From a virus (taxonomy: Duplodnaviria > Heunggongvirae > Uroviricota > Caudoviricetes): a stretch of DNA of 14,856 nucleotides. How positions within the stretch are numbered: the first letter of the stretch is position 1; the number at the start of each line of letters is the position of its first letter. Made by a program: the position numbers and the translations under genes. Below, in pieces: positions 1 to 14,856 of this stretch. The stretch is from the IMG/VR virus record IMGVR_UViG_2778261223_000017; one strand, written 5' to 3'. The notes below the pieces were generated by a model. That model did not search any database. It saw only the letters and a program-made list of their open reading frames with translations, and was not told where the DNA came from.

Positions 1-77
1 ATGCTTCCATCGGAAACGATGATCTGGCAGCCTGAGTTCACAGATAAAACACTCTCCAGGAAACCCGGGGCGGTTCA
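1..77 (+). mobile_element. Partial IS3-family insertion sequence, right end (terminal inverted repeat about 41-77)
   Basis: Bases 41-77 (cagataaaacactctccaggaaacccggggcggttca) are an imperfect inverted copy of 14780-14816; the terminal 13 nt and a CTCCAGGA core match exactly. The TG...CA termini are typical of IS3-family elements. A frame-3 ORF fragment ends at 33-35, as expected for a transposase C-terminus just inside the repeat. The exact IS name was not determined. Confidence 0.6.
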
Positions 78-142
78 GGAACGTTACCTGAGCAAGCTGA
101 AAAAATGTTTATGGAGTATGTGAAGAAAGGTTCTTAATTTAC

Positions 143-168
143 AACAAAGGCGGTTATCCCGCCTTTTA
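143..168. terminator. Stem-loop (aaaggcgg / ccgccttt) with flanking T/A runs, likely terminator downstream of the 171-920 gene
   Basis: Perfect 8-bp inverted repeat with a 5-nt loop seen directly, located just past the stop of the minus-strand gene. Confidence 0.5.
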
Positions 169-170
169 TA

Positions 171-920
171 TTACTTGTCCTTTGATGTCGATTGAGACTC
201 ATATATTGTCTCTACGTCATCTATTAGTTTATTAATACCCCACAATCCAGTGTCTTTATAAAAATCACTTTCTTCAATTGCTTTTAATAAATCGGCAAAA
301 TCTTCTTGCGTGGAAATTCTTTTCTTTTTTGCTTTATATATATCGACAATTACTTTTATGCCGTGATACAGATTCACTCTGGCACTCTCAATCTCTCTCT
401 TCTTCTCTTCAATTGCAGACAATAATTTATATTGATCTTCTGTTTGCTTTTCTAGACTTAAAAGCTTGCTCTCTTTTTGCTTCAAGTTGATCTGCAAATC
501 TTTTATTCTTGCCCTCTCTTCTAAATCAAACTCATAGTCAATGTATCTAATTCTTGCATAGTTCCTGCCTGTTGCTTTTGATATACACATTGTTATATAA
601 GGCATTACCACTGACGCAGTGGTTCCATATATAAATGGCATAACAAAATGAGCCACAAACGGAGATACAATGATGGGGCCAACATAAGGAAAGTGATATT
701 TCTCACCAACCCATACTATAGACAATGTTGTATATATATCGTACTTTGATCTAAATAATATAATAATATCCTGCCAGTTAACGACAAAAAAAGAAACCAC
801 AACATATGCAAACAATTTATTAAATAACTTGTCTCTTATGGCTTCTTCGATTGTGTTCCTGACTGTGACATTTTCATCTTTATTTTCTAATGATGAATCT
901 TTGCTCATATAAAAATTCAA
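171..920 (-). CDS. Hypothetical membrane protein: hydrophobic N-terminal half (two to three predicted TM segments), charged coiled-coil-like C-terminal half
   Basis: Long ORF (249 aa) in a visibly AT-rich segment with Lys/Ile/Tyr-rich codon usage unlike its neighbours. Hydrophobic stretches LFAYVVVSFFVV and IIVSPFVAHFVMPFIYGTTASVVMPYI; C-terminal KE-rich heptad-like region. No recognisable catalytic motif. A weak AGAAGG sits upstream of the ATG at 920; an alternative start is at 908. Confidence 0.65.
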   Translation of the reverse strand: MNFYMSKDSSLENKDENVTVRNTIEEAIRDKLFNKLFAYVVVSFFVVNWQDIIILFRSKYDIYTTLSIVWVGEKYHFPYVGPIIVSPFVAHFVMPFIYGTTASVVMPYITMCISKATGRNYARIRYIDYEFDLEERARIKDLQINLKQKESKLLSLEKQTEDQYKLLSAIEEKKREIESARVNLYHGIKVIVDIYKAKKKRISTQEDFADLLKAIEESDFYKDTGLWGINKLIDDVETIYESQSTSKDK

Positions 921-945
921 ACCTTCTTATCTTTATTTTTGGTGA

Positions 946-964
946 AGGCGGTCTTCCAGACCGC
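946..964. other. Intercistronic perfect hairpin (ggcggtct-tcc-agaccgcc) between the HTH gene stop and the membrane-protein gene start
   Basis: 8-bp perfect inverted repeat with 3-nt loop seen directly. It is not followed by a U-run on either strand, so it is more likely an RNA processing or stability element than a terminator. Confidence 0.35.
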
Positions 965-969
965 CAAAC

Positions 970-1329
970 TCAAACACCAACCAGGCTTTCAAGAGGAATG
1001 CCAAACTGGGAATGTAAACGACGAATCATAGGTAACGTCAAATTTCGCGTGCCATTAAGCACTTCGTAAACACGGTTTGACTTACCAATCGCCGGTTCCA
1101 GATCCTTCACGGTCAGCCCTTGCTGTTCCATGCGGAACTTAATGGCCTCAATAGGTGATGGTGGTTGAATTGGGTAATGTTTCTTCTCGTACTCCTCAAT
1201 GAGAAGACTCATAACCTCAAAGAAATCAGCTTCCGGAGTATTCATTTCCGGTTCGTTATCGAACATCGGTTCGACCGCACGCAGTGCGGCCTCATAATCT
1301 TGTTCTGTACGGATAGGTTTAATGTTCAT
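970..1329 (-). CDS. HTH-XRE family protein resembling HigA-type antitoxins (C-terminal helix-turn-helix)
   Basis: 119-aa ORF. The C-terminal segment LTVKDLEPAIGKSNRVYEVLNGTRNLTLPMIRRLHSQFGIPLESL resembles the HTH region of E. coli HigA-family antitoxins as I recall them; the N-terminal IKPIRTEQDYEAAL is typical of that family. Not verified by search. Confidence 0.6.
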   Translation of the reverse strand: MNIKPIRTEQDYEAALRAVEPMFDNEPEMNTPEADFFEVMSLLIEEYEKKHYPIQPPSPIEAIKFRMEQQGLTVKDLEPAIGKSNRVYEVLNGTRNLTLPMIRRLHSQFGIPLESLVGV

Positions 1330-1341
1330 TAATTACAAAGG

Positions 1342-1370
1342 AAAGCCCACTTGCTAAGTGGGCTTTTTGT
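1342..1370. terminator. Hairpin aaagcccactt / aagtgggcttt followed by TTTTT; bidirectional-looking terminator between higA and the downstream HTH gene
   Basis: Inverted repeat and T-run seen directly. Confidence 0.5.
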
Positions 1371-1385
1371 ATGTGTTTTACTATA

Positions 1386-1724
1386 TCAGGCTGCTTTTTT
1401 ATTCAGGTTACGCTGAGAAATAAATTTTTCAGCAGTATTGATACGACTTAACTCTTCCTGAACGCGCATATCATTTTCGACTTCCCACAGATCTACTGCG
1501 GTCTGAAGATTAATCCAAAAATCTACAGAAGTATCGAATGCTTTTGCCAGGCGATATGCCATATCCATCGTTAGCTTACGATTATTATTAACAAGAGCAC
1601 TTACGGTGTTACGATGAACATGAAGTATTTCTGCTAACTCGTTGATCTTCAGCTCTAACGGCTCCAGGTATTCGTACAGCAGGATATCACCTACGGTCGT
1701 CGGTTTTCTGGTTGCCTGTTTCAT
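1386..1724 (-). CDS. higA: HigA antitoxin (HTH, VapI/COG3093-like)
   Basis: 112-aa ORF directly downstream of the higB-like gene on the same strand. The motif TVGDILLYEYLEPLELKINELAEILHVHRNTVSALVNNNRKLTMDMAYRLAKAFDTSVDFWINLQ matches the HigA/VapI antidote HTH family by recall. Confidence 0.8.
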   Translation of the reverse strand: MKQATRKPTTVGDILLYEYLEPLELKINELAEILHVHRNTVSALVNNNRKLTMDMAYRLAKAFDTSVDFWINLQTAVDLWEVENDMRVQEELSRINTAEKFISQRNLNKKAA

Positions 1725-1794
1725 TTTTTGCCCTTACTAGCGTGCGTATTAAGTGGACTCTGGTCAGAACCCGGTCCGTAACCGGGTATCTGTT

Positions 1795-2097
1795 TTAGTA
1801 TTTGTGAGGGTCGAGATACAAGTCCTCGGCCTTTCCGTTAACCCACTTAAAAATTAACCTATATTGCTTATTCACCCTTACTGATGAATAGCCATTTAGC
1901 TTCCCTGACAGTTCCTCATACCGATTACCTGGTGGTGATCTTAAATCCTTACAGGTAGTTGCGGCATTGATAATGTCCAACTTCCGTGACAATGTCATAT
2001 GAATATCAGGAGGTATCTTTCTATGTGGTGTTGAAAATTCAAAAAAATCATCAAGCCACGCATCCCTGAAATCCTTTATGTTAATTTTTTTGGTCAT
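1795..2097 (-). CDS. higB: HigB toxin (plasmid maintenance killer protein, RelE/ParE superfamily)
   Basis: 100-aa ORF. KDFRDAW...LRSPPGNRYEELSGKLNGYSSVRVNKQYRLIFKWVNGKAEDLYLDPHKY matches the HigB/killer-protein family pattern by recall. Toxin-first order with higA downstream. Confidence 0.8.
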   Translation of the reverse strand: MTKKINIKDFRDAWLDDFFEFSTPHRKIPPDIHMTLSRKLDIINAATTCKDLRSPPGNRYEELSGKLNGYSSVRVNKQYRLIFKWVNGKAEDLYLDPHKY

Positions 2098-2142
2098 TAG
2101 TCATTTGATCCTCCGTGATGATTACCGAATGCCATAACTATA

Positions 2143-2179
2143 GCGCACCGTTGCACTGTGCGCAAGTGCATTTTATGAA
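2143..2179. promoter_or_regulatory. Divergent promoter/operator region between higB and the four-gene operon
   Basis: Inverted repeat GCGCAC-N8-GTGCGC overlapping a TTGCAC / 17 bp / TATGAA promoter-like arrangement on the + strand. All read by eye; function inferred. Confidence 0.3.
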
Positions 2180-2259
2180 TTCCCCCTCCTTCATCCAAAA
2201 TCACAATCTCCCGAAAATCTTCCTTTCGATACCTGACAGATCGACCTTTGAGGATGCTT

Positions 2260-3051
2260 ATGGGCCGTTTTGACGAATGGTTTGCTGACGATGCAAACCT
2301 GGCAAGTAAGGAGTCAGAACATGACAGCACGCAGAGAGAAACGCCAGCGCCGATTGAAGTGAATGCAGGAGGCGCGCCGGAACATGGCAATACCGGTTCG
2401 GATTCATTCAGCATTCTGGAAGAGCAACCCGCCGCCAAAGCTGATAGCCATGATAATTTTGCTGATAGCAACGGTGGCCTTACTCCGGATGCTGGCGAAT
2501 CAGATATAGCCATACTTCCACCTTCCCTGGCTGGCAGAGAATCAACTCCACAGCTAAAAGCACGCTATAACGGGCATAAAGCCTTTAACGACCAAATCCG
2601 CGCAGACTGGATGCTGATTATTGAATCCAGCCCAGACGCGTTTCAGGCTCTCTTATATCGACCAGATGTTGGCACATATGGGGTAGTCAGCGACGAAACA
2701 GGAGAAGAGTCATTCACTGAACTGGATAACAACCAACGCGAACTGACTTACCAGGAACCTGAAATCGTTTATGTGCTGGATAACCCTGACGGGCGTGACT
2801 CTTTCCATGCGATTGACGCAGACGGTGAGCAGGATGGCTTAACCGATGATGTTCTGATTCTGCGTATTGCAGCAAATAACGTCCCCGTCGGCTCAATTCT
2901 TGAATGGAATGAAGAGATGGTAAACGGCGTAGCGCGCCGCTGGTGGTACGTGCACCGTATTTTTAGCTACGGCACACAGCATGTTGGTTCGCTTTACTAC
3001 TGCATACCTGCCAGGAATTTTGATACGACTCAAAACGGAGTGATCGAATGA
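2260..3051 (+). CDS. Hypothetical protein, first gene of four-gene operon; acidic low-complexity N-terminal region and structured C-terminal domain
   Basis: ORF with GAGGA Shine-Dalgarno about 5 nt before the ATG at 2260 (the track's 2248 start is a TTG). N-terminal about 110 aa are D/E/S/G/P-rich; the C-terminus contains RRWWYVHRIFSYGTQHVGSLYYCIPARNFD. The stop overlaps the next start (ATGA at 3048-3051). No family recognised. Confidence 0.6.
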   Translation: MGRFDEWFADDANLASKESEHDSTQRETPAPIEVNAGGAPEHGNTGSDSFSILEEQPAAKADSHDNFADSNGGLTPDAGESDIAILPPSLAGRESTPQLKARYNGHKAFNDQIRADWMLIIESSPDAFQALLYRPDVGTYGVVSDETGEESFTELDNNQRELTYQEPEIVYVLDNPDGRDSFHAIDADGEQDGLTDDVLILRIAANNVPVGSILEWNEEMVNGVARRWWYVHRIFSYGTQHVGSLYYCIPARNFDTTQNGVIE

Positions 3052-3815
3052 CTTCAAATAAAACCCTCCTGGCGCGAACAGGTGAATGGCAAACCTCACG
3101 CACAGGAAAATTCCAGACCACGGGCTTTGAAAACGTGGATAACGCGTTTGCGACGCTAATCAGCAACATTTTTTCTGATATCTTACTGGTGGCCCCCGCG
3201 CCGGAAGAAAAACGCTTTGCGTCATTCCTGAATCGTCCACCAGCAGAGCGTGTTTATGTGGCCCGTTTCGACAATGCGATCGAGTTTCTTAAAGCAGTTC
3301 GTCGCGCAAATGCCGGGCAAGGGAGAAAACCTGAAAACCAGAACATTAACCGGGATGCTCTCCCCCTGGTCAATATCTCACGCACTATGGATATCAATTA
3401 TATCAACGATGATCAGCAGATTGACCGCAAAAAAGTAGCCAGTTTTTGCGAACCGGATACCGGAATGCCTTTAGCAGAACTGGAATACACCCAGGCTATT
3501 CTGACGTATGACGTTACGTTAATGGCAACTGATAAAGCGACCATGAGTCTGATGTGTAATTCGCTGGGCGCACGGCTTCGCCTGATGACAGGTACACAAT
3601 TTGAAGCAACCACTCACCTTGTTCGTGTCCCGGTCCCGCTGATTTGCTCGATACAGGATGCCAAAGAAGTCGGCTTTACGGATGTTTCAGCACCAATTGG
3701 AGAAGAGCGTATTTATGCCACACAAGCGCCGATAAGTGTGATTGCAGACGTGATCACAGCATGGGAGTTGGACGCAAAACGTATTATTACCGAAACCTCG
3801 ATATCTATGGGGTGA
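3048..3815 (+). CDS. Hypothetical protein, second gene of four-gene operon
   Basis: 255-aa ORF translationally coupled to the upstream gene (ATGA overlap). No family recognised. Confidence 0.6.
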   Translation: MTSNKTLLARTGEWQTSRTGKFQTTGFENVDNAFATLISNIFSDILLVAPAPEEKRFASFLNRPPAERVYVARFDNAIEFLKAVRRANAGQGRKPENQNINRDALPLVNISRTMDINYINDDQQIDRKKVASFCEPDTGMPLAELEYTQAILTYDVTLMATDKATMSLMCNSLGARLRLMTGTQFEATTHLVRVPVPLICSIQDAKEVGFTDVSAPIGEERIYATQAPISVIADVITAWELDAKRIITETSISMG

Positions 3816-3818
3816 TAA

Positions 3819-4799
3819 GTGGCCCAGGAGTTACAACAATATTTTCTACAGTCAGTGCTCATTAACGATAACAAAGTGCCACGAGACTGGATTTTTACCG
3901 CAGTATATGTAGAAAAAACCAGCCTCAAAGCCCCTTTGCTAAAACTGGAAATTCATGACGCTACCGGCACCGTAATTGATGACTGGAAAGCCAAATACGG
4001 TGCATCGCTGGTGGCTGAAATGGGCGATCCAAACGGTAATGCAGGCACTTTTAAAACAGATTTCTTTGTTACGTCTGCAATGCTGGCTGGTGATGTTGTT
4101 ACCGTTATTGCTGTCAGTGAAGACGTGCGCAGGTTTAAGATCCCCTCCCCGCGCACAAATTTACATACCAACAAAACACCAGACGCTATATTCAAGGCAT
4201 ATTCCGGCAAGCTTAAAATTACCAGCAGCGTGCTAAAACGCGCAGTTACATATCATCTGAATGCCGGTGACAAACCGTCAAAAATGCTTTCGGAGATAGC
4301 GCGAGACAAAGGTGCATTATGTTGGGTATGCCGGGGGGAATTTAACTTTTACACCCTGGCTGATCTGATGAAGCAAACGCCATCATTTACCTACGAGGGG
4401 AATAACCCTAAAGCAGAATACACTTTGTCCAAAATGCGCCTACTCCAACAGGAACATGCGACAACAGCAAAGAATCAATATCGTTTTGTTGGGTATTCCA
4501 TGACCGATGGCTACGTCGAATATGGCGATAGCTCACTCCCAGTGCGTTATATATCCGACTCTGATATGGAAACTCTTCGCAATATGCAGCTGTCTCTCGT
4601 CCCCAAAATGGATATAGAAGTCGCAGGCAATCCTGATATAAAACCGGGGATGGTGATAGAGATTATCGTATACCGCTATGACCAGGAAAACCGCATTGAT
4701 GAATCAATGCCCCGTAAGCTGATAGTAAAAAATGTTGCGCACTTTGAAGACCGCGTAGGCTACACAACACGAATGATATTGGGAGTGCCGAACAAATGA
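3819..4799 (+). CDS. Putative phage baseplate hub protein (late control gene D / gp27-like)
   Basis: 326-aa ORF with a GTG start 4 nt after the previous stop. Segments KMLSEIARDKGALCWVCRGEFNF and GNPDIKPGMVIEIIVYRYDQENRIDESMPRKLIVKNVAHFEDRVGYTTRMIL resemble conserved regions of P2 gpD-family hub proteins by recall. Immediately followed by, and coupled to, a spike-like gene. Confidence 0.5.
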   Translation: MAQELQQYFLQSVLINDNKVPRDWIFTAVYVEKTSLKAPLLKLEIHDATGTVIDDWKAKYGASLVAEMGDPNGNAGTFKTDFFVTSAMLAGDVVTVIAVSEDVRRFKIPSPRTNLHTNKTPDAIFKAYSGKLKITSSVLKRAVTYHLNAGDKPSKMLSEIARDKGALCWVCRGEFNFYTLADLMKQTPSFTYEGNNPKAEYTLSKMRLLQQEHATTAKNQYRFVGYSMTDGYVEYGDSSLPVRYISDSDMETLRNMQLSLVPKMDIEVAGNPDIKPGMVIEIIVYRYDQENRIDESMPRKLIVKNVAHFEDRVGYTTRMILGVPNK

Positions 4800-5449
4800 A
4801 GCGTAGAGCGCAAATTGTTGGAACTGTGCACCCGGCAGGGCTTATGCGTGCTCAAGTCCGTGTTTTACCTGACTGGAATGGCGTTCCTGATGACGATCTA
4901 CCCTGGGCGGAATACCTGTTACCCATCGGAAACGCTTTTGTACCCACAGTCAAAGGTGACCTGGTCTGGGTAGAGTTTCCTTATTTAGATGTTAACGGTC
5001 GAATAGACACCAGACGCCCAATGATAGTTGGTGCCGCTCAGGATGCACCGGGAGGAATTCCAAACGTTGCACCAGAAGCATCTGGCAAAGGCAACGGCTG
5101 GACGCCGCCGGAAGTAGATGGAGCACCTCCCCGCCCCCAAATCTCAGCAACGAAAGACTTCGTTATTCACCGCAACAATATTCTTGAAGTACGAACTGCT
5201 GGTGGCGGCTATGAAATTGCCAATACGGCAGCAGGCGCAAGGATTGGCATGAATGAGTCCGGGCAGATATATATCATTGGTCCGGCTGATGTAATCGTGA
5301 ATGCAGGAGGGAGTGTTAACGTCAAATCAGCCAACAACATCAATGTTAATGGGGAAAATATAGCTGTCACCGCTAACGGAGACATAGCTTTCAAGGCAGG
5401 AGGAACCTTTCAGGCCACTGCTGGCAACTTCGATTTCAAGAAAGGATAG
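4796..5449 (+). CDS. Putative baseplate central spike (gpV / gp5-like OB-fold N-terminus with C-terminal beta-helix repeats)
   Basis: 217-aa ORF. N-terminal IVGTVHPAGLMRAQVRVLPDW...PWAEYLLP...VKGDLVWVEF fits the gp5/VgrG/gpV OB-fold signature. The C-terminus is Gly/Asn/Val/Ala-rich with short periodic repeats (VIVNAGGSVNVKSANNINVNGENIAVTANGDIAFKAGG) typical of a spike beta-helix. ATGA coupling at 4796-4799. Confidence 0.65.
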   Translation: MKRRAQIVGTVHPAGLMRAQVRVLPDWNGVPDDDLPWAEYLLPIGNAFVPTVKGDLVWVEFPYLDVNGRIDTRRPMIVGAAQDAPGGIPNVAPEASGKGNGWTPPEVDGAPPRPQISATKDFVIHRNNILEVRTAGGGYEIANTAAGARIGMNESGQIYIIGPADVIVNAGGSVNVKSANNINVNGENIAVTANGDIAFKAGGTFQATAGNFDFKKG

Positions 5450-5457
5450 AAAATGCA

Positions 5458-5502
5458 CCCATTTGTGTTAGATAATTAATATGTATTTTCTAACACAAAT
5501 GG
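5458..5502. repeat. Perfect 14-bp inverted repeat (ccatttgtgttaga ... tctaacacaaatgg) with 17-bp AT-rich spacer
   Basis: Seen directly between the spike gene stop (5449) and the rdgC-like start (5509). Candidate operator or terminator-like hairpin. Confidence 0.5.
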
Positions 5503-5508
5503 TGATAC

Positions 5509-6414
5509 ATGAGATCAGTCGCTTTCAAAAATATCTTCATCTATCGTCTTTCACGCGAAGTTAGCTGGGATACTGCAGAAGTAAATGCAGCCCTTAGCAA
5601 GTTTGTGTTTACCCCATGCGGTTCTCAGGATATGGCTAAAGCTGGTTGGACCTCCGTTCTTGGTGACAACCTCACCCATGAATACCAGGGTTTTCTTCTG
5701 ATACAGCATAAACGAGAGGAAAAAATCCTACCTTCTCAAGTGCTCAAAGAAGAGTTACAGAAAAAAATCCTGACACTTGAAGAAGAGCAAGACAGAAAGC
5801 TGAAGAAGACCGAAAAAGATTCGCTGAAGGATGAAGTGCTTCACTCTCTTCTTCCTCGTGCTTTCACGAGAAAATCACTCGCCAAAATCCTGATCGACCG
5901 CAGAAACCATCTGGTATTCGTTGAGGCAAGCAGCGCCAAAAAGGCAGAGGACCAGCTGGCTTTATTGCGAAAATCGCTCGGCAGCCTGCCTGTCATTCCA
6001 TTCACACCACGCGAACCGCTGGAAATTACAATGACCGAGTGGTTTAAAAACGGCTTCCCTGCCGGATTTACAGCAGGTGAAGACGCCAAATTAAAGGGTC
6101 TGCTCGATAATGGTGGTGCCGTTCGCTGCAACAAAGTTGATCTACAGTCCGACGAGATTATGTCTCACATTGAGGCGGGGAAAGTAGCTACGACCGTTGC
6201 AATTAACTGGATGGACCGCGCGTCGTTCAGAGTCAACGATGATATGAGTATCAAAGCCCTGACATTCTGTGATGATCTCTATGACCAGAACGACGATATC
6301 GACCGGGAGGATGTAGCACAACGATTTGATGCTGATTTCGTGCTCTTTACGGGCGAATTATCTGCACTGTTTAACGCGCTGGTGGAGGCCATTGGCGGTG
6401 AAGCAGAACGATAA
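5509..6414 (+). CDS. rdgC: RdgC-like recombination-associated DNA-binding protein (divergent homolog)
   Basis: 301-aa ORF. N-terminus [10 protein letters not shown]...[14 protein letters not shown] and central [23 protein letters not shown]...[26 protein letters not shown] closely parallel E. coli RdgC (about 303 aa) as I recall it, though clearly diverged elsewhere. Confidence 0.8.
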
Positions 6415-6430
6415 TAACCGACCGCTTGTT

Positions 6431-7078
6431 GTGAGTCTTTGTGATTTTACGGGGGCAATGGTTGCCCCCTGGCTGGAATACGGTGTCGATGCCGCTATCG
6501 TCGATCCACAGCACTTATCGACCAGTGACGAGCGGATGCAATCAGGTGCCGTTCTGACGCGTATTAGTGCGATCATCGATAGCGATGAAGTATACGCTTT
6601 TCTCCGTAAGAATTTGCAGCGCATCGTGTTTCTGGCCGGGTTCCCACCGTGTACTGACCTGGCTGTTTCCGGCGCGCGCTGGTTTTCGGACAAGGCTAAT
6701 AAAGATCCGGTTTTCCAGTTCAAAGCAATGCAGGTTGTCTGGCAGTGTTATGACATTGCAAAGATGATCGGTTGTCCGTACATGATTGAAAATCCGGTCA
6801 GCAAAATATCGACATTCTGGCGTAAGCCAGATCACATCTTTCACCCTTACTTCTTCACTGCATATTGTCAGGAAGATAACTACACCAAAAAAACATGCCT
6901 CTGGAGCGGCCAGGGCTTTGTCATGCCTGATGCCCTAATGGACGAATCATTAGGCAAGCCAGATAACAGAATCCATGCCGCGCCACCAGGGCCTGACAGG
7001 GCTAATTTTCGAAGTGCTACTCCACATGGATTCGCAAAGGCAGTTTTCGAAGCGAATAAGGGGGTGCTCTATGAGTAA
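6431..7078 (+). CDS. Putative short DNA (cytosine-5) methyltransferase-like protein
   Basis: Contains a motif-I-like LCDFTG, a motif-IV-like GFPPCTDLAVSG (Pro-Cys) and a motif-VI-like IENP. The start is uncertain: the ORF is open back to 6326 and overlaps the rdgC-like gene; GTG 6431 was chosen because it lies just after the rdgC stop and precedes motif I. About 215 aa is short for a C5-methyltransferase, so the call is tentative. Confidence 0.45.
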   Translation: MSLCDFTGAMVAPWLEYGVDAAIVDPQHLSTSDERMQSGAVLTRISAIIDSDEVYAFLRKNLQRIVFLAGFPPCTDLAVSGARWFSDKANKDPVFQFKAMQVVWQCYDIAKMIGCPYMIENPVSKISTFWRKPDHIFHPYFFTAYCQEDNYTKKTCLWSGQGFVMPDALMDESLGKPDNRIHAAPPGPDRANFRSATPHGFAKAVFEANKGVLYE

Positions 7079-7976
7079 ATCTATAGCAAGCATAGCCATA
7101 GAAAAACAGGATACGATGGCTGAAATTAGCTATATGCGCACCATTCGGACTCCGGATGAATATGAGCGTCCGATATTCAAATGGGTAGGTGGTAAATTCT
7201 CAGAATTGCCTACAGTGCTTGAGCATCTACCACACGGTAAGCGGTTAATAGAACCATTCGTTGGTGGCGGTTCCGTATTTACGAATGCAGGATTTCGCCA
7301 CAACCTGCTTAATGATATTAACGGTGACCTGATTAACTTCTATCAGACATTGCAGCGAGAAGGACATTCGCTCGTCACGCTGTCATATAGTTTTTTCCAA
7401 AATTACAACAACGCTGACGCTTACCTCGAAGTGCGTGAGGCATTTAACAGAGGAAAGTATGACCAGCTACATCATGCTGCCGCCTTTTTGTACCTTAATC
7501 GGCACTGTTTTAATGGCGTAACGCGGTACAACCAAAATGGCGAGTTCAACGTGGGGTATGGCAAATACAAAGCACCCTACTTCCCACACGCAGAGATGGA
7601 GGCATTTTTGGCTGATGACGTACTCAAAAACACGTCCTTTGTATCAGGTGACTTTGCTGGCGTCATCGAGGCGGCTGGTGAAGGCGATGTGATTTTTTGC
7701 GATCCGCCGTATGAACCGCTGCCGGATACAGAAGGGTTTACCAGTTATTCAGGAAATAGCTTCCGTTTCGACGAACAGAAACGGCTGGTATCTCTATTGG
7801 TGGAAGCCCACCAGCGCGGCGCTAAGGTAGTGATAACAAATAGTGGTGCGCCAAACATCCGTGAACTATATGAAGGAAACGGGTTTAAAGTACATCATAT
7901 GGCAGCCAGACGGTCGGTGTCCTGCAAGGCGTCAACACGTGTAGTTGCTAACGATATAATTGCAATAATGAAGTAA
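7071..7976 (+). CDS. dam: Dam-like DNA adenine (N6) methyltransferase
   Basis: FKWVGGK, EPFVGGGSVF, LYLNRHCFNGVTRYNQNGEFNVGYGKYKAPYFP and the catalytic DPPY motif parallel E. coli Dam. AAGGGGG Shine-Dalgarno before the ATG at 7071; the start overlaps the preceding gene's stop by 8 nt. Confidence 0.85.
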   Translation: MSKSIASIAIEKQDTMAEISYMRTIRTPDEYERPIFKWVGGKFSELPTVLEHLPHGKRLIEPFVGGGSVFTNAGFRHNLLNDINGDLINFYQTLQREGHSLVTLSYSFFQNYNNADAYLEVREAFNRGKYDQLHHAAAFLYLNRHCFNGVTRYNQNGEFNVGYGKYKAPYFPHAEMEAFLADDVLKNTSFVSGDFAGVIEAAGEGDVIFCDPPYEPLPDTEGFTSYSGNSFRFDEQKRLVSLLVEAHQRGAKVVITNSGAPNIRELYEGNGFKVHHMAARRSVSCKASTRVVANDIIAIMK

Positions 7977-8008
7977 AAAACGCCGCAGTAGCGGCGTTTA
8001 CTTTTTTA
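7977..8008. terminator. Bidirectional rho-independent terminator (acgccgc-agta-gcggcgt with A-run before and T-run after)
   Basis: Seen directly between the convergent dam-like and glnS genes. Confidence 0.7.
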
Positions 8009-8024
8009 TGTGGCGAAATACCTA

Positions 8025-9686
8025 TTAACCTAACTTCGCCCAGGTATCACGCAGCCCAACGGTGCGGTTAAATACCGGTTTTTCCGCCGTAGAATGGCGG
8101 CTGTCGAGGCAGAAATAACCTTCACGCTCAAACTGGAATGCTTTACCCGCTACCGCGTCTTTCAGAGACGGTTCAGCAAAGCCCTGTTTGATCACCAGCG
8201 ATTCCGGGTTAATCACCGACAGGAAATCATCCGCAGCACCTGGGTTCGGCACGCTGAACAGACGGTCATACAAACGGATTTCAACCGGCAGCGCATGTGC
8301 CGCGCTCACCCAGTGAATAACACCTTTGACTTTACGACCATCTGCCGGATCTTTGCTTAAGGTATCGGCGTCATAAGTACAGAAGATGGTGGTGATATTA
8401 CCTTCGGCATCTTTCTCGACGCGTTCTGCCTTAATCACATAAGCATTACGCAGACGCACTTCTTTACCCAGCACCAGACGTTTGTACTGCTTGTTAGCTT
8501 CTTCGCGGAAATCGGCGCGATCAATCCAAATCTCACCGCTAAACGGCACCTGACGGCTCCCCATTTCCGGTTTGTTCGGATGGTTCGGCATGGTGACCAT
8601 TTCGCCTTCGCCCTGATAGTTTTCGATAACCAGTTTCACCGGATCGATAACCGCCATTGCGCGCGGCGCATTTTCGTTGAGATCTTCACGGATGCAGGAT
8701 TCCAGCGACGCCATCTCAATGGTGTTGTCCTGCTTGGTCACGCCGATGCGTTTGCAGAACTCACGAATAGAAGCAGCAGTGTAACCACGACGACGCAGAC
8801 CGGAAATGGTCGGCATACGCGGGTCATCCCAGCCTTCAACGTGCTTGTCGGTCACCAGCAGGTTCAGCTTACGCTTGGACATCACAGTGTATTCCAGATT
8901 CAGGCGCGAGAATTCGTACTGGCGCGGGTGAACAGGAATGGTGATGTTGTCCAGTACCCAGTCATACAGACGACGGTTGTCCTGGAACTCAAGCGTACAC
9001 AGAGAGTGCGTAATACCTTCCAGCGCATCGCTGATGCAGTGGGTGAAGTCGTACATCGGGTAGATGCACCACTTGTTGCCAGTCTGGTGGTGTTCAGCAA
9101 ACTTAATGCGGTACAGCACCGGGTCGCGCATCACGATAAACGGCGAAGCCATATCGATTTTCGCACGCAGGCAGGCTTTACCTTCTTCAAAACCACCGGC
9201 ACGCATTTTTTCGAACAGCGCCAGGTTCTCTTCAACGCTGCGATCGCGGTACGGGCTATTTTTACCCGGCTGCGTCAGGGTGCCGCGGTATTCGCGGATC
9301 TGTTCCGGCGTCAGTTCGTCAACATACGCCAGGCCTTTGTTGATCAGTTCAACAGCATAGGCATGGAGTTTGTCAAAATAATCGGAGGAGTAACGGATGT
9401 TGCCAGACCAGTGAAAACCTAACCATTCAACGTCGTTTTTAATCGACTCGACGTACTCGATATCTTCTTTTACCGGGTTAGTGTCGTCGAAACGCAGGTT
9501 GCACTGGCCTTTATAGTCCTGGGCGATCCCGAAGTTCAGGCAGATAGATTTCGCATGGCCAATATGCAGATAGCCATTCGGCTCCGGCGGGAAACGGGTG
9601 TGTACTGTGGTGTGCTTACCACTGGCCAGATCTTCATCGATGATCTGACGAATAAAGTTAGTCGGGCGGGCTTCTGCCTCACTCAT
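8025..9686 (-). CDS. glnS: Glutaminyl-tRNA synthetase
   Basis: 553-aa ORF. N-terminus [47 protein letters not shown] (class I HIGH motif) and a VMSKR-type KMSKS motif; near-identical to E. coli GlnS as recalled. Confidence 0.97.
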
Positions 9687-9875
9687 TGTGGATTCCTCAA
9701 AGCGTAAACAACGTATAACAGCGTATGATCTTATAAGCCGAATAGGCTGACAACCACTAGTTGATTAGAAATTGCTTTCTATCGTTATTTCAATAATGAG
9801 CTTTTTCATGAAGCCCACTTTTGCGCATAAGTAAATTAATGACAAATGGTACACAATTGGAACCAAAAAGGATGT

Positions 9876-9913
9876 AAAGGTGCACCAAATTAGTGGTGTA
9901 TTGGTGCACCTTT
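9876..9913. promoter_or_regulatory. Perfect 13-bp palindrome arms (aaaggtgcaccaa ... ttggtgcaccttt) with 12-bp spacer in the glnS-upstream / partition-downstream intergenic region
   Basis: Seen directly. Could be an operator, a centromere-like site or a terminator hairpin for the upstream partition operon. Confidence 0.4.
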
Positions 9914-9954
9914 GGTTCAAGACTTTTTAAGTTCTAAAACCAACCTGAAAGACT

Positions 9955-10242
9955 TTATTTTGCTTCCTCAGACTCCGCTAACATGAGGATAGCATGGCGG
10001 ATCATATTCAATTTGCTGCGATTATGCTTTTTACTTAACGCATCAAGTACTTGGTACTCGTATTCATTGAAACCAACACGAATAGATTTAAAATCACGTG
10101 GAGCGTCCTTATCGAGCACTTTGTTGTCTTCTGGTTGCTCACCCGGCACCAAATCAGCCTTACTGGCAAAATCCTCAATTCGGCGTTCAAGATCAGGGTC
10201 TTTTACTTCGGGGGCTTTTACCGATTTACGAGGCTTAATCAC
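9955..10242 (-). CDS. Small partition-operon DNA-binding protein (ParG/ParB-like, probable ribbon-helix-helix)
   Basis: 95-aa basic ORF directly downstream of and overlapping (8 nt) the ParA-like gene. Disordered N-terminus, then C-terminal KSIRVGFNEYEYQVLDALSKKHNRSKLNMIRHAILMLAE consistent with a beta-strand plus helices RHH fold. Confidence 0.55.
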   Translation of the reverse strand: MIKPRKSVKAPEVKDPDLERRIEDFASKADLVPGEQPEDNKVLDKDAPRDFKSIRVGFNEYEYQVLDALSKKHNRSKLNMIRHAILMLAESEEAK

Positions 10243-10876
10243 TTAATAACTCCTTAACCAACATCTGGATTTCACCTTTAGCTTTCCCGTTGTCCATCTC
10301 AACAACGCCCTTCCCTTCAGCCATGCAATCGCGGTAAACCTTACGATCACGAATGATGGTTTTCAGCAACTTCAGTTGCGGATATTCAGCCAGGTACTCT
10401 TTGGCCTCATTGGTTTCATTCACAACCGGATTGGATGGGGCCATTGTTAAGACTGCGAACGCCTTGATGCTAGGATTAGGCATCAGGTCCAAAGCCTCTT
10501 CAAACACTTCAACAAAGTGTGCCAGCGTGTCTAAATCTGGTTGAGATGGTCTGAATGGGACCAACACAATATCTGCAGCGGTTATGCCTGTACGCATCTC
10601 TTTGCTATCGCGCCCGGCTGTATCAACAACTACAAATTCATAACGCTTATCCAGATCGAGAAGTGTTTCTCGAATATTACCAAACTTCTGGACACAATGA
10701 ATTACAGGAGAAACCTCTGCCGTGTTACGGTCAGCTGCCCAGCGGGCAGCTGTTCCTTGCTTGTCTGCATCTAGTAACACTACATCCTTATTTTCGCGGG
10801 CAAGCTCCGCACAGATGTTTACGCTTGTGGTTGATTTTCCACAGCCACCTTTTTGGCTGACTACCAATATAATCAT
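10235..10876 (-). CDS. parA: ParA/ParF-type partition ATPase (deviant Walker A)
   Basis: VVSQKGGCGKSTTSVNICAEL Walker A box and VVVDTAGRD Walker B-like motif. Start chosen at ATG 10876 (GAGGA Shine-Dalgarno 5 nt upstream) rather than the track's TTG at 10906. Confidence 0.85.
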   Translation of the reverse strand: MIILVVSQKGGCGKSTTSVNICAELARENKDVVLLDADKQGTAARWAADRNTAEVSPVIHCVQKFGNIRETLLDLDKRYEFVVVDTAGRDSKEMRTGITAADIVLVPFRPSQPDLDTLAHFVEVFEEALDLMPNPSIKAFAVLTMAPSNPVVNETNEAKEYLAEYPQLKLLKTIIRDRKVYRDCMAEGKGVVEMDNGKAKGEIQMLVKELLSD

Positions 10877-11114
10877 ATCCGTTCCTCGGTGTGATTTTGG
10901 TATCAAAACGGTTCCAGATAAGAGCCTTTTTGATGCGGGACAGGCTCTATAATGGAGTCATGAATGTTTGGCAAAGTATAACATCAATCAGACCAAATAC
11001 ACCTTATATTGCATCCTATTTAACACGAAAGCAGCCCCAAATTGGAACCAGATACAAAATTGCACCATAACAGCACCTAACTGGTGCCAGATTAACACTA
11101 ATTAGACACCATTA

Positions 11115-11146
11115 AGGCATAAAAAAGGCTGCAATTTGCAGCCTTA
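11115..11146 (-). terminator. Rho-independent terminator after parR (aaggctgca-loop-tgcagcctt followed by a U-run on the minus strand)
   Basis: Seen directly. Confidence 0.65.
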
Positions 11147-11163
11147 AACCAGCACATCTTCTG

Positions 11164-11502
11164 TCAATCAGGTAGAGAGTCAGCCAGATTGCGCGCCGAC
11201 GCGCTTTTGGCAACAAATTGCTCCTTCACTGGCTCAATGGAGGCAGGGCGCTCCTCAACCGCAGCTGGTAGTTCCAAGAAGGATGCCAGCATTTTTCGGA
11301 TCAGCTCCGGGTTATTGTCTTCGGTCAGCAGGGAAGCCAGTAATCCTGGAAGCCTGCTATCGACTTCTCCCAGCGCAAGCCCTGCCAACAATGCAGTTCT
11401 TGCCATATCGCTATGTTTTTTTATCTTCTCGCTCGCCGCCTTTTCATTGGCATAAGCCTCTGGGCGAAGATAAATCATCACTTTCTTACGTTCCTGAGAC
11501 AT
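11164..11502 (-). CDS. parR: ParR/StbB-like centromere-binding protein
   Basis: Small ORF immediately downstream of parM. ARTALLAGLALG resembles the R1 ParR motif NRAALTAGLALY by recall. Start at ATG 11502 (ACGAGG 7 nt upstream); 11508 is an alternative. Confidence 0.65.
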   Translation of the reverse strand: MSQERKKVMIYLRPEAYANEKAASEKIKKHSDMARTALLAGLALGEVDSRLPGLLASLLTEDNNPELIRKMLASFLELPAAVEERPASIEPVKEQFVAKSASARNLADSLPD

Positions 11503-11514
11503 GGACATACCTCG

Positions 11515-12471: not shown

Positions 12472-12495
12472 CTTCTTGCTCCACTTCTGAGACAC

Positions 12496-12660
12496 ATTTG
12501 AGAATCAAAATGTAATTTTAAAAGAGAAGCCCCCAAAAATCCACACCAAACGAGATAAAAAAGGGCGCTTGTTGAGTTTATTTTGAGAATATCTTAATCA
12601 CCCACCGAATGATGGTCTGATAGTGAGATTTATTTGAGAGCGAATTGAGAATACAAAAAT
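12496..12660. repeat. Candidate parC-like centromere: repeated TTGAGA(A/G)-containing elements upstream of parM
   Basis: TTGAGAAT at about 12499 and 12582, TTGAGAG at about 12634, TTGAGAAT at about 12649; two longer related copies gagtttattttgagaat and gagatttatttgagagc. Seen directly; the role is inferred from position upstream of parMR. Confidence 0.4.
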
Positions 12661-12737
12661 ATTCCGAAATTTAACTCTCCGTTTGAATGACGAAATAACA
12701 AAGTGATGACAATAGAAGGATAACCAGGAGGTGAAGA

Positions 12738-13022
12738 ATGAGCGCAATAGCCACCAGCGACACCCTTTGTTCTGGTCACGGAGGATTTCCGCCGCGACTG
12801 GTAGCTGAAACCGTTCCCTGGTTCACCGTTAACGGTAAGCCAGTTGTTGTAGATGGTGCCATGTTTCCCAGTCACACTGACGGTAACAGTGCACATCCAG
12901 GGGCAGCTGTATCGACGCGAGCATGGTTTTCGATAGGTGGAAAGGGAGTTGTCTGTGTAGGCGATCTGCTTTCTTGTGGTTCTGTTATCGCCAACGGCGA
13001 GGATATTTTTCAGGTTGCATAA
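12738..13022 (+). CDS. PAAR-like domain protein (spike-tip protein)
   Basis: 94-aa ORF with strong AGGAGGTG Shine-Dalgarno. Repeated motif pattern FTVNGKPVVVDGAMF and SIGGKGVVCVGDLLSCGSVIANG with conserved Cys/His/Gly positions typical of PAAR proteins. Confidence 0.7.
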   Translation: MSAIATSDTLCSGHGGFPPRLVAETVPWFTVNGKPVVVDGAMFPSHTDGNSAHPGAAVSTRAWFSIGGKGVVCVGDLLSCGSVIANGEDIFQVA

Positions 13023-13828
13023 TGCTTGATTCAATAGGTGAAGTTAAAGCCTTCAAAATTCTGTCAGATGCCGGTATCTCTACACCAGAATCTATAACCA
13101 TAAGCCGAGCAGCTTCTGTAAAAGCCTCATCGCTCGCCAGCGCCATACAGGGAATAGTTCACGCCGATAAAACCTATCCTGATTCTGTTTCGGCCTGGAC
13201 TACTCAATTGCTTGGCTTTTCTGAACAGCTCAATGAGGCCAGCAAAGCGTCTTCATTACTGGCTGATTCTCTTTCCCCATACACCAAGCCATCAGAGCTG
13301 TTACAGATGAAGATTGGCTGGGAATGCTACGCAAAAGGTAACGAGCTGACCCCCATACCTGCTTTCGCCCTTGTTGAGGGAATGGGGAATGTTTCCATTC
13401 CGCAATCTCTAACGGACGCATTGACGGCGCTAAAACTTGATGCTCTGAAAACCGCCATGAACGCCATTAACGCAAAAATTGAAGCTGCCGGAAGTGCTGG
13501 TGGTGGTGATAGCAATGGTGGACAGGGTGGTGCTGGGGGCGCTCAGGCTCCAGTCATTACTCAGGATGAAATTGATGCTTTACGGGAAGCAGTGACAGCC
13601 GCCGAAGCTTTACTCTCCGAAATTAACTCAGCAAGTGAGAGTGTCGTAGCCCTTACAGGTCGCATTAAAACGTCAACCACTCAGGCAACCAAAGGTTTAG
13701 AGAACGCTGTCGCCATCACGTTAACTGGCTCTCTACTGGATGATGCAGTAATGAGTCCGGCAATCAGTTTAATCATGCCACAAGGCGTTATCGATGCGCT
13801 CCAAAAGAACACCAAAAAGGAACCATAG
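13022..13828 (+). CDS. Hypothetical protein coupled to the PAAR gene; Ala/Ser/Thr/Leu-rich with an internal Gly-rich linker
   Basis: Start ATG overlaps the PAAR stop (TAATG at 13020-13024). Predicted helical, no TM segment, linker AGSAGGGDSNGGQGGAGGAQAP. No family recognised. Confidence 0.6.
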   Translation: MLDSIGEVKAFKILSDAGISTPESITISRAASVKASSLASAIQGIVHADKTYPDSVSAWTTQLLGFSEQLNEASKASSLLADSLSPYTKPSELLQMKIGWECYAKGNELTPIPAFALVEGMGNVSIPQSLTDALTALKLDALKTAMNAINAKIEAAGSAGGGDSNGGQGGAGGAQAPVITQDEIDALREAVTAAEALLSEINSASESVVALTGRIKTSTTQATKGLENAVAITLTGSLLDDAVMSPAISLIMPQGVIDALQKNTKKEP

Positions 13829-13883
13829 CAACACCACTTAGGCACACAAAAGGATGTAATTTGGTACATGTTTAACACCGAAA

Positions 13884-14357: not shown

Positions 14358-14523
14358 TTACTCCCCTTGTTTAGTGCCAGAAGACACGCCAGTGCTGTTA
14401 AACAAGTATCCGACATACGCTGAACAGTTATTCAGCACGATCGACGAATGCAACCAACGAAACGCACTGAATAACCAAAGAAACAGGGAGATTTGGGAAG
14501 GGAAGGGGGATCAAGGCTCCTGA
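14191..14523 (+). CDS. Rz1-like outer-membrane lipoprotein spanin (o-spanin), overlapping the i-spanin gene in another frame
   Basis: GAGGAAAG Shine-Dalgarno before the ATG at 14191. Signal peptide with lipobox LSGC (MKSLALKMRYAVLGLTMCVCLMTLSGC), Pro-containing mature region, and two further Cys residues. The gene begins inside the Rz-like gene and extends past it, the overlapped spanin architecture. Confidence 0.55.
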   Translation: MKSLALKMRYAVLGLTMCVCLMTLSGCSGNGQKPSTSVPVKITVEATSKPQANLIDYSPCLVPEDTPVLLNKYPTYAEQLFSTIDECNQRNALNNQRNREIWEGKGDQGS

Positions 14524-14779: not shown

Positions 14780-14856
14780 TGAACCGCCCCGGAAATCCTG
14801 GAGACTAAACTCCCTGAGAAAGAGGTAAACAGGATGACTAAAAATACTCGTTTTTC
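14780..14856 (+). mobile_element. Left end of an IS3-family insertion sequence (terminal inverted repeat TGAACCGCCCCGG...) including the start of the transposase orfA
   Basis: Terminal repeat is inverted relative to 41-77. An ATG at 14834 preceded by GAGG opens a frame reading MTKNTRF..., which matches the N-terminus of an IS3-family OrfA as I recall it. Truncated by the window end. Confidence 0.65.
14834..14856 (+). CDS. IS3-family transposase OrfA, N-terminal fragment (partial, runs off window)
   Basis: ATG with Shine-Dalgarno inside the IS left end; only 7 codons visible. Confidence 0.5.

Follow-up and report, generated by a model that had tools for sequence, protein, structure and literature searches.

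Four tightly coupled genes at positions 2260-5449 of the stretch of DNA analysed here (the window, 14,856 nt) almost certainly form an ordinary operon for virion assembly, carried by a D6-like plasmid prophage of the P1 family and encoding in order a head-tail stopper, a tail terminator, a baseplate hub and a central spike (Table 1), with the rest of the tail encoded elsewhere on the ~90-kb element. Sequences and descriptions of the element (phage D6/pYU39_89) are already available, and each of the four proteins has a structurally defined orthologue in P1. A preliminary description of this DNA had taken the operon for a minimal puncturing module detached from a contractile tail. That reading is contradicted by the P1 homologues found for all four genes and by the full tail gene set carried by D6 and pYU39_89.

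Table 1. Coordinates of features in the window, with the evidence or remarks that go with each.
Feature	Position	Strand	Evidence or remark
Right end of an insertion sequence of IS629/IS1203 type (IS3 family)	1..77	.	Window starts inside; terminal repeat CCCGGGGCGGTTCA
Last 19 codons and stop of P1 gene-25 homologue	78..137	+	Cut by IS or contig end
Hypothetical protein, D6 orf73 homologue	171..920	-	D6 annotation; varies among D6-like plasmids
higBA-type toxin-antitoxin cassette	970..2097	-	HTH protein 970-1329, HigA 1386-1724, HigB 1795-2097
Putative D6-type late promoter, AAATCACA-N7-GAAAAT	2198..2218	+	62 nt upstream of first gene
Gene 1: P1 gp7 homologue, head-tail connector stopper (head-completion hexamer)	2260..3051	+	PDB 9ums_B Gp7, 3.3e-43
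Gene 2: P1 gp24 homologue, tail terminator hexamer capping tube and sheath	3048..3815	+	PDB 8jan_y Gp24, 1.6e-14
Gene 3: P1 gp6 homologue, trimeric baseplate hub	3819..4799	+	PDB 9vzk_1 Gp6, 7.6e-72; phrog_1390, 2.6e-144
Gene 4: P1 gp5 homologue, trimeric central spike without lysozyme domain	4796..5449	+	PDB 9vzk_q Gp5, 2.9e-55
Perfect inverted pair of ATTTGTGTTAGA	5461..5500	.	Between spike gene and rdgC
Second putative D6-type late promoter, AAATAACA-N7-GACAAT	12693..12713	+	Upstream of PAAR gene
P1 UpfC homologue, PAAR protein capping spike	12738..13022	+	PDB 9vyi_A UpfC, 7.3e-35
P1 UpfB homologue, "tripod" at spike tip	13022..13828	+	D6 orf56 "similar to P1 upfB"; phrog_1559, 2.1e-110
Left terminal end of second IS629-type copy (inverted repeat and orfA start)	14780..14856	.	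TGAACCGCCCCGG...ATGACTAAAAATACTCG; IS629 matches

The four genes are intact and their tight coupling, as first described, is seen directly. The ATG of the first gene is preceded by GAGG at 2250-2253, ATGA overlaps join genes 1 and 2 (3048-3051) and genes 3 and 4 (4796-4799), and between genes 2 and 3 the stop codon TGA (3813-3815) is followed by TAA (3816-3818) and then by a GTG start; the spike gene ends with TAG (5447-5449). The products are 263, 255, 326 and 217 aa long, so that the earlier length for the second protein holds and that for the first (264 aa) is off by one. A minus-strand ORF (2097-2513) overlaps gene 1, a gene conserved across at least 46 homologues.

Orthology was tested by phmmer against the PDB, with near full-length coverage except at the gp7 N-terminus, and by BLASTP against P1 proteins, and was found for four of four products (gp7, gp24, gp6 and gp5). 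The annotation of D6 agrees, equating its orf69, orf68, orf67 and orf66 with P1 genes 7, 24, 6 and 5. In P1, CRISPRi knockdown has classed genes 5, 6, 24 and 7 as essential and gene 25 as non-essential (PMC10695390). That the spike scaffold has been put to some new use had also been suggested; the two upstream proteins would then be novel partners. This reading could draw on the facts that Pfam returns nothing for genes 1-3 and that RefSeq calls the products hypothetical. Yet all four match PHROG families that carry a tail-protein annotation (1e-46 to 1e-144), and the structures of the P1 orthologues have been solved and are matched by the models of genes 1 and 2, leaving such a function scarcely credible. 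The Pfam result for the four proteins (none at E<=0.01; in the spike, DUF2345 scores a sub-threshold 17.1 bits against a cut-off of 30.7) is uninformative and provides no evidence of novelty. RefSeq lists all four genes as hypothetical; the hub is widely mislabelled "tail length tape measure protein" in public databases, and "baseplate" is the name given to the terminator.

The two upstream genes, previously said to match no family, are recognized both by sequence and by AlphaFold/Foldseek as relatives of P1 gp7 and gp24, which have been defined by cryo-EM as the head-tail stopper (PMC12810830) and the hexameric tail terminator (PMC10304247), respectively. Their products are thus ordinary proteins of the neck and tail. 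The gene 1 product is 44% identical to P1 gp7 over 171 aa (BLASTP), and the top Foldseek match of its AlphaFold model, through the C-terminal domain, is 9ums_B (8.8e-15). Weaker matches include the neck of phiCD508 (4e-3), the stopper of phage 812 (prob 0.99) and the gp13/gp14 neck of T4. The model, of moderate confidence (mean pLDDT 61.6), shows the stopper fold of a helix, a beta-sandwich and a long loop. The acidic, disordered N-terminus noted earlier is borne out by 19 D/E versus 4 K/R within residues 1-85 and by a pLDDT below 50 at residues 9-81. An acidic N-terminal extension of 60-114 aa and variable sequence is present in every member of the stopper family; this tail is absent from the modelled P1 cryo-EM chain. 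The gene 2 product is just 22% identical to P1 gp24 (227 aa, E 4e-19, BLASTP), yet the fold match is strong: its model (pLDDT 76.9) has the terminator core fold and finds 8jan_A as the top Foldseek match (6.7e-20, TM 0.74), followed by T4 gp15 (1.5e-06), T5 p142 (3.7e-04), contractile injection system (CIS) caps and the pyocin collar. By homology to gp24, the gene 2 product would form a hexamer on the last tube/sheath ring.

The last two genes had been described as a gpD/gp27-like hub and a gpV/gp5-like spike. The assignments as hub and spike stand, through identities of 38% to P1 gp6 (over 321 aa) and 46% to P1 gp5 (both by BLASTP); no sequence-level membership of the gpD/gp27 or gpV families was found. 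The spike also matches phrog_430, a gp5-type family (6.8e-46), and has weak beta-helix matches to VgrG (0.037), phiKZ gp164 and T4 gp5. A profile of the hub built from 25 homologues finds P1 Gp6 as its sole match among PDB sequences, hhalign gives a probability of 0.3% for the hub against Mu gp44, and BLASTP of the spike against Mu gp45 returns nothing. The sequence signature of gp27/gpD/Mu gp44 (Pfam Phage_GPD, the N-terminal part of VgrG) is not found in the hub. Membership of the gpD/gp27 and gpV families at the level of sequence is consequently not claimed, the Pfam, PDB profile, hhalign and BLASTP searches being negative.

In the P1 particle, cryo-EM has defined gp6 as a trimeric hub and gp5 as a lysozyme-less spike that is capped by the PAAR protein UpfC and carries UpfB, the "tripod", attached to its tip; the gp6 fold is reported to contain tube-like domains, which form a pseudo-hexameric ring in the trimer (PMC12810830). 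The role of the gene 3 product as a hub is predicted from its identity to this structurally defined gp6, and the gene 4 product is expected, by its likeness to gp5, to consist of an N-terminal OB-fold domain and a C-terminal triple beta-helix. The window also contains both tip proteins: the PAAR protein, which in addition matches T4 gp5.4 (1.8e-4) and Pfam PAAR_motif (1.8e-06), and the UpfB homologue, which has no solved structure.

Sheath, tube and wedge genes are indeed absent within the 14.9-kb window, as first reported, because the window is cut there; the statement fails for the element itself. The sheath gene of pYU39_89 lies 3 kb past the right end of the window, and both D6 and pYU39_89 encode sheath, tube, tape measure, wedge and fibre proteins elsewhere on the element. 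D6 has homologues of P1 genes 22, bplB, tub, pmgG, sit, pmgA, bplA, 16, 26, 25 and the S/R/U fibre genes, and relatives of the window element encode capsid, portal and terminase. The absence of these genes from the window, together with the nearby PAAR protein, had allowed the operon to be read as a stand-alone hub-plus-spike module serving a type VI secretion system (T6SS) or a tailocin encoded elsewhere. We consider this vanishingly improbable. The products are orthologues of virion proteins seen in the P1 particle, and the PAAR protein is itself the UpfC orthologue. In the closest relatives a complete set of tail genes lies on that one replicon, and every match in complete E. coli genomes (102 of 102) is plasmid-borne. 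Hub and spike fall below the threshold of all Pfam families, VgrG-type included, and no T6SS families were detected with Pfam. An orphan VgrG island or tailocin was also rejected in view of the separate hub and spike genes, the exclusively plasmid location of the complete E. coli matches and the head genes of the relatives. Both P1 orthology and genomic context thus contradict the suggestion of an orphan island.

A survey of related loci, which had been recommended as a check, reveals conserved synteny: the order 26-25-7-24-6-5, and with it 7-24-6-5, is kept in P1 and in nine loci from Citrobacter, Pantoea, Enterobacter and Xenorhabdus. The window preserves gene 25 (3' end)-[insert]-7-24-6-5, with gene 26 off the window. 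In P1 the homologous operon lies between pmgL-pmgP and dbn/ban. The operon looks isolated because P1-family phages normally scatter their tail genes. Its flanks are as first described, with HigB/HigA and an extra HTH protein on the minus strand to the left and RdgC and two methyltransferases to the right.

Positions 736-14779 are 99.3% identical to Escherichia phage D6 (MF356679), and positions 76-14779 differ from the Salmonella plasmid prophage pYU39_89 (NZ_CP011430) by 9 substitutions and 0 indels in 14,704 bp (99.9% identity), with all four operon proteins identical. Positions 76-735, which hold the orf73 homologue, depart from D6 and match the pYU39_89 variant. This gene, whose product has no Pfam hit, is the first of an accessory insert between genes 25 and 7. 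An Rfam scan of the whole window gave 0 families at threshold. D6-like plasmids are common in Salmonella and E. coli.

The carriage of a whole virion gene set by a phage-plasmid is seen in D6 and in the nearly identical pYU39_89; the window copy ends in IS copies. The left IS end is 97-100% identical to IS629 copies in many Stx phages, and the second copy, in the same orientation, sits in the D6 orf53 homologue. What remains of gene 25 translates as GTLPEQAEKMFMEYVKKGS, which matches the C-terminus of D6 gp25 (...PPAQAEKMFMEYVKKA); the homologue in pYU39_89 is complete (19777-20973). No record of the IS/gene-25 junction was found in complete E. coli genomes or PLSDB. Since the copy is bounded by IS629-type ends and gene 25 is cut, the prophage in the source may be incomplete or non-functional. 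The copy could be part of a decaying or rearranged element, in which a 14.7-kb D6-like segment lies between two directly oriented IS629-type copies as a non-functional remnant or a composite-transposon-like unit. Such a state would account for the truncation of gene 25 by the left IS and the interruption of the orf53 homologue by the right one. However, contigs in short-read assemblies routinely end in IS copies within otherwise complete elements. In addition, all ORFs between the IS ends are intact and there are just 9 substitutions relative to a complete plasmid prophage, arguing for a very recent insertion rather than long decay. Defective D6-like variants generated by IS deletion have been documented, for example pSO21_75 (PMC6799933), but the gene that is cut here is the one found non-essential in the P1 knockdown (PMC10695390). 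On balance decay is unlikely, and it is compatible with the identification of the four genes as a virion-assembly operon.

The higBA cassette (Pfam HigB-like_toxin 4.4e-35; HTH_3 7e-11 and 3.3e-05) is absent at the corresponding position in P1, and querying nine other relatives with the toxin gave no match; in most of them genes 25 and 7 are adjacent. Upstream of 2260 there is no P1-type Lpa box (AAGTNACTT, 4 nt, TAnnnT). The 9-mer TAGTCATTT at 2098-2106, equal to the -22 box of P1 LPpmgL, was rejected as a P1-type late promoter; it is judged a chance occurrence because there is no -10 element on either strand and it overlaps the higB start. A different motif, AAATMACA-N7-nAnnnT, occurs twice in the window (0.14 matches expected) and in D6 precedes 11 morphogenesis, lysis or dar operons, all co-oriented. 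The copy at 2198-2218 is a putative late promoter, and the motif may already be described in the literature. Downstream of the spike gene, the 12-mer ATTTGTGTTAGA of the inverted pair recurs in D6 upstream of ref, upstream of gene 23 and near repL, and a sigma-70-like hexamer pair (5447-5476) overlaps the pair. An intrinsic terminator was rejected, as no T-run follows; this, together with the operator-like positions of the half-site in D6, makes an operator likelier. The inverted pair probably serves the promoter of the (early) operon that comes next as a bivalent C1-type operator, and the 3' boundary of the late operon probably lies here.

Taken together, the region is best explained as the last four genes of the late morphogenesis operon known from the P1 family, here on a D6-like plasmid prophage, with the roles of the products transferred by orthology from the P1 structures. 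In the filled head, the gene 1 hexamer would close the portal-adaptor channel and dock the tail, and the gene 2 hexamer would cap the last tube and sheath rings and bind the stopper. The hub would serve as the platform for building the tape measure, tube initiator and tube, and the spike would be sharpened by the PAAR protein and decorated by UpfB. All four are expected to work only with the sheath, tube, tape measure, wedge and fibre proteins from other clusters of the element. In the D6 lineage the oppositely transcribed higBA cassette was probably inserted between genes 25 and 7, and the four genes would since have had a late promoter to themselves, most likely the one at 2198-2218, with coupled translation. 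A fuller version of this history, to which we give about even chances, holds that higBA split an ancestral six-gene operon, that the distal four genes became an independent late unit and that AAATMACA, followed after 7 nt by a -10-like nAnnnT, is an activator box specific to the lineage, replacing AAGTNACTT at all late operons; it also takes in the acidic N-terminal tail of the stopper family.

A short window from a P1-family phage can imitate an "orphan" spike module, the tail genes being interspersed with genes for plasmid functions and recombination and with accessory genes. Public annotation has not caught up with the structures, and similar false leads are expected to recur. The D6-type promoter motif and the operator-like repeat could help in annotating D6-like plasmids.

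A known system of like organization is the P1 LP26 operon 26-25-7-24-6-5, which shares gene order and orthologous proteins with the window and is likewise sited among non-tail genes. Its proteins, however, are only 22-46% identical to those of the window, no toxin-antitoxin cassette lies between genes 25 and 7, and all six genes are driven from LP26 with a AAGTNACTT-type box, whereas another motif stands upstream in the D6 lineage. D6 and pYU39_89 have in common with the window the higBA insert, the rdgC/methylase block, glnS, the partition genes and upfC/upfB; they differ in lacking the IS629-type ends. With the terminators and stoppers of other phages the likeness is at the level of fold only (6-12% identity): gene 2 falls in the class of T4 gp15, T5 p142, lambda gpU and the pyocin R2 collar, and gene 1 resembles the phage 812 stopper, T4 gp14 and the phiCD508 neck. 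The P1 spike complex resembles T4 gp5/gp5.4 (PMC12810830), and T4 gp27-gp5-gp5.4, Mu gp44-gp45, P2 gpD-gpV and T6SS VgrG-PAAR would share with the window the same architectural role, a trimeric hub and trimeric spike with one PAAR tip. Unlike VgrG, the window operon encodes hub and spike as separate proteins.

The four-gene operon is already known, and comes from a known phage-plasmid family. The tight coupling of its plus-strand genes reported in the preliminary description holds up in the ORF list and when the junctions are read directly: start and stop codons overlap as ATGA at 3048 (genes 1/2) and 4796 (genes 3/4), the stop codon of gene 2 and the GTG start of gene 3 are set apart by a TAA triplet (3816-3818), and each of the four starts has a Shine-Dalgarno-like sequence ahead of it. 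The flanks are likewise as described: the minus strand on the left encodes HigB, HigA, and one more HTH protein, and RdgC and two DNA methyltransferases are encoded on the right. A PAAR protein gene lies at 12738-13022, and the 14,856-nt window contains no sheath, tube, or wedge genes.

That the four proteins belong to P1 protein families is established (Table). The record of Escherichia phage D6 (MF356679) labels the corresponding genes, orf69, orf68, orf67, and orf66, as similar to P1 genes 7, 24, 6, and 5, and tail-protein PHROG families match all four proteins (1e-46 to 1e-144). The last two genes had been correctly read as hub and spike; the first two, said to match no family, are orthologues of P1 gp7 and gp24 by phmmer, BLASTP, and Foldseek. 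Structures of the gene-1 and gene-2 proteins were predicted from homologue alignments built here. For the gene-2 model (pLDDT 76.9), the top Foldseek match is P1 tail chain 8jan_A (E 6.7e-20, TM 0.74), followed by T4 gp15, T5 p142, contractile injection system caps, and a pyocin collar. The gene-1 model has a disordered N-terminus and a C-terminal domain that matches P1 connector chain 9ums_B (E 8.8e-15), with lower matches to the phiCD508 neck, the phage 812 stopper, and T4 neck proteins. Public databases carry outdated names for the hub ("tail length tape measure protein") and for the gene-2 product ("baseplate"), and RefSeq names all four genes hypothetical in pYU39_89, a Salmonella plasmid prophage (NZ_CP011430).

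Table. Features of the window and tail genes of phage D6
Feature	Location	Strand	P1 protein	Evidence and remarks
Right end of IS629/IS1203-type element	1-77			Same orientation as second copy
Accessory cassette (variable 249-aa protein, HTH protein, HigA, HigB)	171-2097	minus		~2.1 kb; between genes 25 and 7
Putative late promoter, box AAATCACA	2198-2218			AAATMACA-N7-nAnnnT motif; 62 nt before gene-1 ATG (2260)
Gene 1	2260-3051	plus	gp7	ORF list, junctions read directly; PDB phmmer 9ums_B, 3.3e-43; BLASTP 44% identity, C-terminal 171 aa
Gene 2	3048-3815	plus	gp24	ORF list, junctions read directly; PDB phmmer 8jan_y, 1.6e-14; BLASTP 22% identity, 227 aa, E 4e-19
Gene 3	3819-4799	plus	gp6	ORF list, junctions read directly; GTG start at 3819; PDB phmmer 9vzk_1, 7.6e-72; BLASTP 38% identity, 321 aa
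Gene 4	4796-5449	plus	gp5	ORF list, junctions read directly; PDB phmmer 9vzk_q, 2.9e-55; BLASTP 46% identity, 201 aa
Putative late promoter	12693-12713			AAATMACA-N7-nAnnnT motif; 45 nt before upfC
Left end of second IS629/IS1203-type copy	14780-14856			Direct orientation relative to first
Sheath	D6 orf48
Tube	D6 orf45		BplB
Tube initiator	D6 orf43		Tub
PmgG	D6 orf46		PmgG
Tape measure	D6 orf40		Sit
Wedge	D6 orf39-37		PmgA, BplA, gp16
Plug	D6 orf75, orf74		gp26, gp25
Fibre genes	D6 orf32-36

In P1, gp24 is the hexameric tail terminator, which caps the tube and contacts the last sheath ring (2023 cryo-EM, PMC10304247). Within the portal-adaptor-stopper connector, gp7 is modelled as a hexameric stopper that docks on gp24; gp6 is modelled as the trimeric hub, and gp5 as a trimeric spike without a lysozyme domain, which is capped by the monomeric PAAR protein UpfC and carries UpfB as a tripod (2026 study, PMC12810830). 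Genes 5, 6, 24, and 7 are essential, and upfB and upfC non-essential, by genome-wide CRISPRi (PMC10695390). Given the orthology and these P1 roles, the operon encodes the head stopper, the proximal tail cap, and two central proteins of the distal end; genes 1 and 2 are thus no accessory partners of a spike. The PAAR protein of the window matches UpfC at 7.3e-35 (T4 gp5.4 at 1.8e-4), and the gene directly after it encodes a UpfB homologue.

The stopper begins with an acidic, low-complexity extension (2260-2514, residues 1-85). The acidic, disordered N-terminus noticed earlier is borne out by 19 D/E versus 4 K/R in these residues and by a pLDDT below 50 at residues 9-81. All 46 homologues carry such a tail, of 60-114 residues and with a net charge of -11 to -25; that of P1 gp7 has 23 D/E and no K/R in 67 aa. 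Its sequence varies among the homologues, the conserved part being MGRFDEW only, and it appears to be unmodelled in the P1 cryo-EM chain (158/242 residues).

D6 is a P1-related myovirus, and its prophage state is a circular plasmid. By megablast, window positions 736-14779 are 99.3% identical to D6, and positions 76-14779 are 99.9% identical to several Salmonella enterica plasmids of ~75-93 kb. One of these, pYU39_89, differs by nine substitutions and zero indels across 14,704 bp; the four operon proteins, UpfC, UpfB, GlnS, HigB, and HigA are identical. PMC6799933 describes this plasmid as a D6-like prophage that is complete. Across 5,426 complete E. coli genomes, the left part of the window has 102 matches, every one plasmid-borne and none chromosomal. 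Other genes of the window, glnS and those for a ParA-like ATPase and StbA/StbB partition proteins, fit this picture of a D6-like plasmid prophage. The glutaminyl-tRNA synthetase gene (8025-9686, minus strand) is full-length and lies amid phage and plasmid genes; it has already been reported as cargo of all D6-like elements (PMC6799933). Toward the right end, an Rz-like i-spanin gene (13884-14357; phrog_214, 7.6e-16) is overlapped in another frame by an ORF (14191-14523) encoding a protein with a lipoprotein signal (...LMTLSGC). The two likely constitute an overlapped Rz/Rz1 spanin pair; they are D6 orf55 and orf54, both labelled hypothetical there.

The operon looks isolated, and tail genes are scattered in P1-family phages. 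In P1 itself the LP26 late promoter drives 26-25-7-24-6-5, an operon flanked by pmgL-pmgP and, on the other side, by dbn/ban. D6 encodes homologues of all proteins in the P1 tail model, and the genes lie in separate clusters (Table). Sheath and tube genes are both present elsewhere in D6, and in pYU39_89 the sheath gene begins ~3 kb past the right end of the window. The idea of a stand-alone hub-plus-spike module is therefore refuted on its own terms: genes 1 and 2 encode ordinary neck and tail proteins, and relatives possess the full tail set.

The synteny survey suggested earlier was run with a single genome for each species and added nine loci, from Citrobacter, Pantoea, Enterobacter, and Xenorhabdus; the majority are on contigs of 83-93 kb. 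The order 7-24-6-5 is kept in P1 and in these loci, all nine of which have the longer order 26-25-7-24-6-5 with rdgC downstream; upfC was detected downstream in eight, and the sequence of the Enterobacter locus stops ~2.6 kb after rdgC. The accessory cassette was not detected between genes 25 and 7 in P1 or the nine other relatives. Since the HigB toxin finds no match in the nine loci and genes 25 and 7 adjoin in most of them (Citrobacter has an uncharacterised gap of ~950 bp), the cassette is a D6-lineage-specific insertion. In pYU39_89, genes 26 and 25 stop 34 bp ahead of the cassette, whose leftmost gene is not the same as in D6. In the Xenorhabdus szentirmaii locus (7308-11562), homologues of 25, 7, 6, and 5 are each broken up in tblastn into several segments that differ in frame, which suggests that the operon has decayed in this genome.

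The two IS ends enclose 14.7 kb of D6-like DNA. The left IS truncates the gene-25 homologue, leaving its last 19 codons in the window, and the right IS interrupts the orf53 homologue; the left IS/gene-25 junction has no record among complete E. coli genomes and PLSDB plasmids. The favoured source is a complete D6-like plasmid that recently took up two IS copies: the window is nearly identical to an intact prophage, and IS copies are routine break points of assemblies. Defective variants of the D6-like element via IS are known (PMC6799933) and speak for a source that holds only a fragment, a reading less favoured than the complete plasmid.

P1 late promoters consist of a -22 box, AAGTNACTT, four bases, and TAnnnT; none of this type is present upstream of gene 1. 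The -22 box of P1 LPpmgL, TAGTCATTT, occurs at 2098-2106, overlapping the higB start codon, and is judged a chance match since there is no -10 element on either strand. The D6 morphogenesis operons share a different upstream architecture: AAATMACA, seven bases, and a -10-like nAnnnT. This motif occurs twice in the window (0.14 expected from shuffles) and at 11 sites in 80 kb of D6. All 11 are co-oriented with, and 45-160 nt upstream of, a late-type operon start (mat, 7, upfC, 23, a lysin, pmgB, R, lydA, ddrB, prt, and darB), and among the late-type operons checked in D6 and in pYU39_89, every one has the motif ahead of it. The sites are shared with pYU39_89 and absent from P1 and most distant relatives. 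Judged from this distribution, the motif stands in place of the P1 box in the D6 lineage; it is a probable lineage-specific late promoter motif, and probably provides the D6 Lpa homologue (orf4) with its binding site and -10 element. The four genes would then form a late unit of their own in this lineage.

The interval from the spike gene to rdgC contains ATTTGTGTTAGA as a perfect inverted pair (5461-5500). In D6 this 12-mer recurs ahead of ref, ahead of gene 23, and close to repL; it resembles the P1 C1 operator, ATTGCTCTAATAAATTT. A terminator was considered, but the pair looks like an operator of a D6 C1-type repressor, and this is preferred. It most likely marks a repressor-controlled promoter of the rdgC-methylase operon, so that the late unit would end there.

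The points that remain are minor: the probable promoter motif, the operator-like repeat, the acidic tail of the stopper, and the outdated names of hub and terminator. No Pfam family matches the hub or spike above threshold; a hub profile built from 25 sequences has P1 Gp6 as its sole match among PDB sequences, hhalign gives the hub a probability of 0.3% against Mu gp44, and the spike has no BLASTP match to Mu gp45. Membership of hub and spike in the Pfam gpD/gp27 and gpV/VgrG families is thus not established, and their fold-level kinship would carry over from the P1 structures. Trimeric hub and spike with their PAAR tip would act like the canonical centrepiece of a contractile tail, to which the operon adds a standard terminator and stopper.
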